In this document: positions 53,149 through 54,448 of the stretch, piece by piece
How positions within the stretch are numbered: the stretch's first letter is position 1
How the letters are laid out: each line of letters opens with the position of its first letter
Assembly: GCA_963514005.1 (NCBI GenBank)
Contig: OY740782.1
Coordinates: 123,070,001 to 123,134,000 of the forward strand
Source of the DNA: Raja brachyura
Lineage: Eukaryota
Direction of reading: 5' to 3'
DNA length: 64,000 nt
Notes under the pieces: generated by a model
The model's database searches: none
What the model saw: only the letters and a program-made list of their open reading frames with translations
What the model was told of the DNA's origin: nothing
Program-made: the position numbers and the translations under genes

Positions 53149-54448
53149 GAAGACGTCCTGAATAAGGCTGAGAACTGTCCTTACGTTTATAACACTGACT
53201 AAGATGGATCAATTACCACAGGTTCTTGAAGTAACCAGAAAAAGGTGGCAGCTGATCCTGGAGCTACAGACTGAGCTGAAACAGATGAAAAATGTGCTCA
53301 CCAATGCCCAGTCTGAAAATGACCATCTCACTTCCATCAAACAGCAGCTGAAGGAGAGCAATCAGGTTGTGGAGTTGCAAAGCCTTGATTTTAGTGCAAC
53401 TCAGTGACAGAACTGGATTGAGGTAAATCACAGCCGGGATCAAAGTGAGGAGCTCAGTTGGGATGGATCAGACAGAAAGTCGGCATAGATGTAGAAGGAA
53501 GAAGATTGCTGCTTTCACACCTGATGGACAACTTGGTTGAAAGAACGTCTTTACAGATCAGGAGGAAGTGCAAAGCCTTTGGTCACTACTTTGGAAAGAC
53601 GAACCACATTTGATCAATCATTTTGAAGCATTTCGAGCTCTATCGTGTGACCAAGGGTCTAGAGAGAGAGAGAAACTGAACATTTTGAAAAAGATGGACC
53701 TCTTGAGAGAGATTATGCATAACCCTGACCAGGAAGACAATGACTCAGACCTGTAGGGTAATCAGTGTGATGACAATCAGGACATTGATAAGGATGGCAA
53801 CAATGGCATTCCTGATGAGAGGGGCAATTGCCGTTTTGCTCCCAACCCTGACCAGATCGATGCCAATGGTAACGGCAGAGGAGACACCTGCAAGGAAGAC
53901 TTTGACAACAACAACATCCCATATATCTATGACATGTGCCCCGAGAACAGCGCCATCAGTGAGACTGACCTGAGGAAGTTCCAAAGGGGACGATGCAGAT
54001 CGATCCTAACTGGGTGGCGCGCAACAAGGGCAGGGAGTTGCTGCAGACCGGCAACTCTGACCCTGGCCCTGTTGTCAGATTCAAGGAGTTCAATGACATC
54101 AACTTCAGTGGCACCTTTCACGTTAACACAGACCGCTATCTACGCCGGCTTTGTCTTTGGCTTCCAGTCCAGAAGCCGGTTCTATGTGGTGATGTGGACG
54201 TAGGTCACCCAAACCTACTGGGAGGAGAAGCTGTCCAAAGCTGGTATCTCGCTCAAGGTGGTGAACCCTACCACGGGCCGAGAGCGGGGAGCACCTGTGC
54301 AACGTTCTCCGAAGAGACTGGCAACACCCTCAGACAGGTGTGAACTTTGTGGCACGTCCCCATCGGCTGAAAGGATTACACCGCCTACATGTGGCACCTG
54401 ATCCCCCATCAACCCTAAACAGGCTTCATCTGGATGGTGGTCAATGAA
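53149..54448 (+). pseudogene. Intronless thrombospondin (THBS2-like) fragment: type-3 repeats plus C-terminal lectin-like domain, interrupted and decayed
   Basis: [111 protein letters not shown]. Confidence 0.88.
53210..53715 (+). pseudogene. Scrambled intronless fragments of a CRACR2A/CRACR2B/RAB44-family coiled-coil region
   Basis: DQEEVQSLWSLLWKDEPHLINHFEAF resembles CRACR2A [51 protein letters not shown] resembles [25 protein letters not shown]. Confidence 0.7.

Follow-up and report, generated by a model that had tools for sequence, protein, structure and literature searches.

The 64,000-nt stretch of DNA analyzed here, referred to as the window (Raja brachyura, assembly GCA_963514005.1, OY740782.1:123,070,001–123,134,000, forward strand; positions are window-based), carries part of a repeat element in which spliced mRNA fragments of host genes stand in the place of what appears to be a retroviral env. 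Across the element family the fragments come from four genes, each with an intron-bearing parent elsewhere in the genome. They are nested inside one another, two of the inserts are rotated relative to their parental mRNAs with short microhomologies at the rearranged joints, single copies still correspond to earlier stages of assembly, and the element has spread to many loci. From these sequences we infer, with a probability of roughly 0.75, serial capture of host mRNAs in particles supplied by env-bearing relatives, in germ-line cells, each rotation being a backward jump of reverse transcriptase on a linear mRNA.

The carrier and its spliced cargo

Only the 3′ half of the element, with a younger LINE fragment inside it, is present in the window (52428–55139; Table 1), and no 5′ LTR was found in the window or in the 20 kb upstream. 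The LINE fragment is presumably CR1-like, and about 240 nt present after the integrase remnant in other copies are deleted here. The remaining parts follow in the order env leader, thrombospondin (THBS), Rab exon D, Bicaudal-D (BICD), filler, Rab exon D, Rab exons A and B, a deletion, Rab exon C, THBS, env tail and LTR. The BICD cargo lies inside the Rab insert and the Rab insert inside one THBS exon; in other copies ZNF276 lies inside Rab exon A. A search of 45 parent and sister loci with up to three mismatches returned no source for the filler. Elsewhere in the window, a 961-aa stop-free reading with endonuclease- and reverse-transcriptase-like motifs (58760–61645, plus strand) is what we take to be a CR1-type LINE, probably a young copy. 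Two long broken readings on the minus strand (44854–46062 and 47900–49300) represent two other LINE-type reverse transcriptases, and short 10-nt tandem units, repeated 174 nt apart at 51538–51784, bear no relation to the element.

Table 1. Parts of the element copy in the window, with the evidence for each (coordinates are window positions).
Feature	Positions	Strand	Evidence and remarks
Internal ERV sequence, left edge of surviving half	52428..52566	+	82–90% identity to other copies
LINE 3′ fragment, common, later insertion, foreign to element	52567..52936	-	many 75–96% matches at unrelated loci; other copies lack it here
Putative retroviral integrase region remnant	52937..53048	+	homologous region of earliest-stage copy matches PF18697 MLVIN_C, E 4e-5, under cut-off
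pol end and env leader	53052..53152	+	internal env deletion joins them to the 7 nt preceding the splice-donor-like site of sister env copies
Thrombospondin-2-like cargo, left part	53153..53207	+	93% to L085:9884-9927; begins at host exon's first base position
CRACR2A-like Rab gene, downstream exon, first piece, aa ~449–457	53206..53230	+	L124:4510-4482; unbroken in C11 copy
Bicaudal-D cargo, two spliced exons of C16 gene, internal deletion	53230..53382	+	Pfam BicD E 2e-11; 96%, 96%, 100% to L048 and L069
Filler, 14 nt (16 nt in other copies)	53383..53396	+	
CRACR2A-like Rab gene, downstream exon, second piece, aa 460–471	53397..53428	+	94% to L124:4471-4440; 3′ end is the 8-nt microhomology of the backward joint (53421–53428)
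CRACR2A-like Rab gene, two upstream exons spliced, aa ~108–179 (second coiled-coil piece of the initial annotation)	53421..53633	+	88% to L106:6797-6659 and 4596-4513
ZNF276 insertion site, empty in window	53539..53547	+	occupied in most other copies by ZNF276 mRNA, circularly permuted and ~1.5 kb long, with a repeat of this motif at its flanks
CRACR2A-like Rab gene, later exon and 6 nt of next exon, aa ~328–353 (third coiled-coil piece of the initial annotation)	53634..53713	+	90% to L124:9249-9179
Thrombospondin-2-like cargo, right part: spliced type 3 repeats and C-terminal domain	53714..54449	+	Pfam TSP_3, TSP_C; exon-by-exon match to L085/L086
env 3′ tail and polypurine tract (54585–54597)	54450..54597	+	homologous stretch 86% to a sister env-bearing copy
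3′ LTR, 542 nt, TG...CA	54598..55139	+	

In 20-kb views of ten copies, the element emerges as a unit, about 6.7 kb long, bounded by direct repeats at its ends. After named places had been merged and parent genes removed, at least 143 loci on 38 contigs were found to carry the element, a lower bound. The recurrence of the mosaic at other ERV loci, raised in the initial annotation, is widespread: the insert DNA was recovered at 82–93% identity in all 39 other places scored, out of 245 candidates, and the mosaic is not a product of chance. LTR pairs with TG...CA ends were recognized in 15 of the 58 other copies, with K2P distances of 0.05–0.10 (median 0.082). The sequence after the 5′ LTR resembles, with small differences, the complement of the 3′ end of the genome's tRNA-Ser(AGA), as expected of a primer binding site, and a polypurine tract directly precedes the 3′ LTR. 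Among the 15 two-LTR copies examined, exact 4-bp target-site duplications flank four (L109, C19, L111, L115) and duplications with one mismatch flank two (C11a, C22), the ends of the other nine being unclear. The earliest-stage copy matches PF18697 (MLV integrase C-terminal) at E 4e-5, below the curated cut-off; no retroviral Pfam match was obtained with four sister env stretches or with one pol stretch. In the sister elements the same leader is followed by an env-like reading where the cargo would be; env was assigned from its position, a hydrophobic leader and what we take to be an ISD-like motif. We regard the carrier, on the basis of its sequence, as a non-autonomous endogenous retrovirus whose env was replaced by host-gene cargo, and the retroviral context proposed earlier is borne out by the env-bearing sisters, LTR, primer site and target duplications, along with the integrase match under cut-off. 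The 4-bp duplication and the MLV-type integrase match would point to a class I (gamma/epsilon-like) ERV.

Related env-bearing ERVs (L170–L180, e.g., C8:28.82 Mb, C12:54.07 Mb and C5:61.43 Mb) amount to 180 candidates; all those read are broken, and some hold other insertions or deletions in env. At C9:26.760–26.768 Mb (L026/L027) one 3′ flank sequence follows both LTRs, unlike in other copies, possibly a tandem or recombined insertion. In contigs under three other organism labels, all 30 of 30 bins are covered; one of these contigs spans the empty ZNF276 site with 4 differences in 272 nt and is probably the same locus in a relative.

All cargo is spliced, runs in the element's sense strand and fits inside a 560-nt stretch of one element; about 15 exon–exon joints were counted. 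The parents retain their introns elsewhere in the genome (THBS on C8, Rab on C20, BICD on C16 and ZNF276 on C17), with exon-by-exon identities of 80–100%, and the nearest named proteins are those of skate (89–91% and 99–100%). Both THBS halves in the window derive from one exon of the C8 gene, of which 30 nt were lost at the insertion site and 15 nt just to its left; the best PDB match of the next THBS exon is thrombospondin-2, and the right part carries deletions, stops and frameshifts. As candidate parents, the thrombospondin genes on C9, C3 and C32, two other zf-AD loci and a BICD paralogue on C20 matched worse or not at all, the exons of this paralogue giving no match to the BICD cargo. 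PDB sequence searches with the first coiled-coil piece and with the second and third returned no named match, and a protein search with a broken element piece yielded no parent candidate; a 71-nt DNA search found the parent instead.

The initial annotation had placed, within a break of the THBS reading, three scrambled coiled-coil pieces of a single CRACR2/RAB44-like family. The break itself was located correctly, the reading stopping near 53207 (after CPYVYNTD) and resuming at 53714 (HNPDQ at 53718), and all three peptides are present in the gap. The second and third match the skate EF-hand/coiled-coil/Rab protein at aa 146–179 (85%) and 325–353. The first is BICD: it reaches only 31% identity (E 0.75) to the Rab protein, versus a Pfam BicD match of E 2e-11 and 96–100% DNA identity to two spliced exons of the C16 gene, putatively BICD2. 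The gap is therefore occupied by two genes, BICD nested in Rab, assembled in stages still found in the genome, in place of scrambled pieces of one family. The claim of non-native order fails for the second and third pieces, which follow the native order with an internal deletion, but it holds for Rab aa ~449–471 (53206–53230 and 53397–53428), which precede aa 110 onward.

The Rab parent combines EF-hand, coiled-coil and Rab domain motifs in one C20 gene. Its protein, P0002, has 16 exon matches and Pfam EF-hand and Ras domains, with exon A spanning aa 96–154 and exon D aa 398–541. The two named matches are EFCAB4B-like (91%) and RASEF-like (89%); EFCAB4B is, we assume, CRACR2A, and the parent is here called CRACR2A-like, its putative orthology being judged from these named matches. 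ZNF276 sequence occurs in 49 of the 58 other copies and is missing from the window copy. Two further zf-AD matches besides ZNF276, L036 (C30:39.529 Mb) and L037 (C10:18.900 Mb), have long stop-free frames of 638 and 413 aa; to our knowledge vertebrates have one zf-AD gene, and these loci may be extra zf-AD genes or retrocopies.

First joint, surviving stages and capture order

The 7 nt that end the element's leader precede a splice-donor consensus (8 of 9 positions) in all four sister env copies with the motif, 11 loci having been read; it is one of two such 8/9 sites in about 1.1 kb. In 17 cargo copies the same 7 nt lead directly into the THBS exon, beginning with the exon's first base position. 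This base is A in 16 of the 17 and G in the gene, so that the splice model needs one founder substitution. The 3′ joint of the THBS cargo lies about 17 nt into a later exon, and a search through 60 kb of the THBS gene turned up no ERV remnant. The first env–THBS joint looks spliced rather than template-switched; of the earlier proposal that template switching built a multi-gene chimera, the several source genes and the spliced RNA stand, and the first joint appears to be an exception. In the model of retroviral transduction, the 5′ joint is spliced from a provirus in or near the gene and the 3′ joint is made during reverse transcription, and by analogy the first capture appears to match it. 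THBS is out of the leader's frame in 12 of the 13 copies measured, including both early-stage copies; hence no fusion protein is indicated, and neither is any function of the cargo.

Separate copies correspond to successive stages of assembly. Stage 1, with THBS only, is the C29 copy, which alone among 40 scored places (besides the gene) spans the whole THBS exon and which holds no other cargo. Stage 2, with THBS and Rab, is the C11 copy, the only one of four matches (besides the gene) with Rab exon D unbroken. It contains the backward joint and two Rab exons lost in later copies, lacks BICD and ZNF276, and ends before the right THBS part. An insertion that presumably resembles a DNA transposon cuts it from L149:8300 onwards (C11:39.867 Mb), and the right half was not found within 10 kb. 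Each of these two stages is represented by one copy. Stage 3, with BICD and an empty ZNF276 site, comprises three copies by exact pattern (the window, C9 and C23), and the four-gene form is the most amplified.

The position of the window copy was assessed at 81 diagnostic columns, those in which 75% or more of the ZNF276-bearing copies depart from the parental base. This base is kept in 24 of 77 columns in the window copy and in 22 of 72 in C23 (31% each); the fraction is 0–15% in ZNF276-bearing copies, 3–7% in three ZNF276-less copies outside the column choice, 12% in C9 and 17% in C19. In a tree of the right side (29 of 59 rows), the window, C23, C5 and the THBS-only C29 fall outside a 25-row clade (97/96). 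The ZNF276-bearing C5 groups with the window and the ZNF276-less C9 falls within the main clade, which implies that ZNF276 may at times also be lost exactly, between its direct repeats. No node is supported in the tree of the left side (37 of 59 rows, shorter matches omitted). The window copy is best read as an early branch of the family and probably never held ZNF276; that BICD was captured before ZNF276 is suggested less firmly. Four genes captured at different times are too few to serve as a record of one cell type's transcriptome, a possibility raised in the initial annotation.

Rotated inserts and the route of capture

Both the Rab and the ZNF276 inserts are circularly permuted. The Rab insert runs through aa ~449–471, then 108–179, then 328–353 of P0002. 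The ZNF276 insert begins with the second-last exon, continues through the last exon and 3′ UTR, and then passes from the zf-AD exon onward to the first 7 nt of the second-last exon; a repeat of about 9 nt flanks it, and at its left end about 20 nt are imperfectly duplicated. The bases at the empty ZNF276 site were considered as the scar of a lost insert and rejected as such: the stage-2 copy shows them on the host side. The backward joints lie mid-exon, with exact donor/acceptor identity over 8 nt (Rab) and 7 nt (ZNF276), and five deletions within single genes have exact microhomologies of 8, 8, 3, 10 and 5 nt. By chance, random position pairs reach 7 nt in 0.05% of 193,515 draws; two of the seven within-gene microhomologies sit in repetitive THBS sequence. 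At the inter-gene joints, read by eye, the overlap is about 2 nt (THBS–Rab), 1 nt (Rab–THBS) or none clear (Rab–BICD), and BICD–Rab holds the 14–16 nt filler; the ends of ZNF276, with 6 nt in common, form the sole inter-gene joint with more than about 2 nt. Microhomology is strong at the within-gene joints and weak, or replaced by filler, at the inter-gene ones, and this scarcity would count against template switching between genes.

In the mechanism we favor, the env donor would first have been spliced into the thrombospondin exon. Reverse transcriptase would then have switched onto a co-packaged host mRNA and back three times, acquiring Rab, BICD and ZNF276. For a rotation, a short match would let the enzyme onto the mRNA; it would copy toward the 5′ end, jump to a 7–8 nt match lying further 3′, either in that molecule or in a second one, and continue copying until its return to the element. 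In the case of ZNF276 this may have amounted to one turn, starting and ending at the same exon start and leaving a short direct repeat. The element would have been copied in trans by env-bearing relatives in germ-line cells, and its cargo amplified in the germ line as non-coding baggage.

Rotation could also arise if reverse transcriptase copied packaged circular RNAs of Rab and ZNF276 once round, the back-splice junctions being removed later by microhomology deletions. This reading is possible but doubtful. Two of the three nested inserts are rotated, the ZNF276 turn begins and ends at one spot, and five other joints show that short-repeat deletions are common in the element, all of which a circular template would suit; LTR-flanked circRNA-derived pseudogenes are moreover known in mouse (available text of PMC4897178). 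The order is non-colinear, but neither backward joint lies at an exon border or forms the exact back-splice exon–exon junction of a circRNA-derived pseudogene. The Rab joint connects two internal exons, with a donor side similar to a splice donor, whereas its identity extends 6 nt beyond the possible AG cut, which splicing does not predict, and purines are abundant on its acceptor side; the ZNF276 joint lacks a GT and takes in 3′ UTR of the last exon. No copy has more of the Rab downstream exon (the probe matched the gene only), four other probes on 58 copies revealed no extra sequence, with the 3′ UTR probe matching via a dispersed repeat only, and the microhomology joint is already present in the stage-2 copy. 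Sequence alone cannot tell two jumps on a linear mRNA from one pass round a circle. Were the circular template real, the family would document, stage by stage, how a retrovirus captured circular RNAs, and would offer the mechanism that is still missing for circRNA-derived pseudogenes flanked by LTRs.

Joining at the DNA level, by gene conversion or break repair from cDNA or processed pseudogene templates into a resident provirus that was then amplified, is unlikely. It would accommodate the inter-gene joints, where the weak microhomology, the 14–16 nt filler and the imperfect duplication of about 20 nt are features that also arise in templated break repair. It leaves unexplained, however, that the cargo is all spliced, in sense and within 560 nt of one element, that every stage sits in element context, that the THBS-exon and Rab-exon searches found no free processed copy, and that the first joint runs from a donor site to an exon start. 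Retention of the cargo for a function, for example as a fusion of a thrombospondin domain with the env leader and tail, like those of transducing retroviruses, is very unlikely: although the THBS C-terminal region lies between env leader and tail and the four-gene form is the most abundant, THBS is off the leader's frame in 12 of 13 copies, the later inserts interrupt its reading, and the pieces in the window hold stops and frameshifts.

Significance and comparison with known systems

Multi-gene LTR capture is usually seen finished, whereas here copies corresponding to four successive stages coexist in one genome; together with parents at 80–100% identity, they make the capture order and the chemistry of the joints readable. 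On the favored reading of serial capture from linear mRNAs, a single lineage would combine the splicing route of transduction at its first joint with the template-switch route at later ones. Rotated inserts with microhomology joints mean that a non-colinear exon order in a retrocopy needs no back-splice junction, which affects the calling of circRNA-derived pseudogenes. In practical terms, fragments of THBS, BICD, Rab and ZNF276 at so many loci can mislead the annotation of skate genes and the mapping of reads.

In oncogene transduction by simple retroviruses, the 5′ joint forms by splicing or read-through and the 3′ joint by reverse-transcriptase recombination. The skate element resembles these viruses in its joint from donor site to exon start, its mid-exon 3′ joint, the loss of env and the need for a helper; it differs in that there is no fusion protein and that it forms a germ-line repeat family rather than a tumor virus. 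The part of PMC5086612 available to us contains nothing on oncogene capture. In crocodilian ERVs, according to the accessible sections of PMC4299795, nectin3 replaces env in CrocERV31 and KIT-ligand in CrocERV29. Host mRNA instead of env, a multi-copy lineage and a non-mammalian vertebrate host are common to both cases, but each crocodilian element carries a single gene whose open frame is under purifying selection, with copy numbers of six and nine, and the four genes of the skate element are out of frame and broken.

Dong et al. 2016 (PMC4897178) described, in the portion consulted, LTR-flanked non-colinear pseudogenes with exact back-splice joints, such as mouse circRFWD2, and left the mechanism open. 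Non-colinear exons, many copies and nearby LTR sequence are shared with the skate element, in which mid-exon microhomologies take the place of the exact back-splice exon–exon junction.

The element itself, nesting with surviving stages, and double permutation had no earlier report in the literature searched, which included few subscription journals and no Repbase-type annotation. The closest relatives are the LTR-mediated retrocopies of Tan et al. 2016 (PMC5131818). In the available text, 25 of 29 Drosophila joints show short similarity, fillers are described, a mouse retrocopy named 'Super' combines four genes within MERVL, and maize Bs1 is cited for its three captured genes; 'circular' and 'rearrang' are absent from the main text. 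As far as that text goes, both systems place partial spliced mRNAs from several parents where the coding region of an LTR element would be, show short similarity or filler at joints (in the skate element the similarity is strong within genes and weak between them), and undergo further rounds of retroposition as non-autonomous elements. The skate element differs from 'Super', described there at one locus, in its nested inserts, surviving stages, two rotated inserts and at least 143 loci. LTR-mediated multi-gene capture is already known; nesting with surviving stages, double rotation and high copy number are added here.
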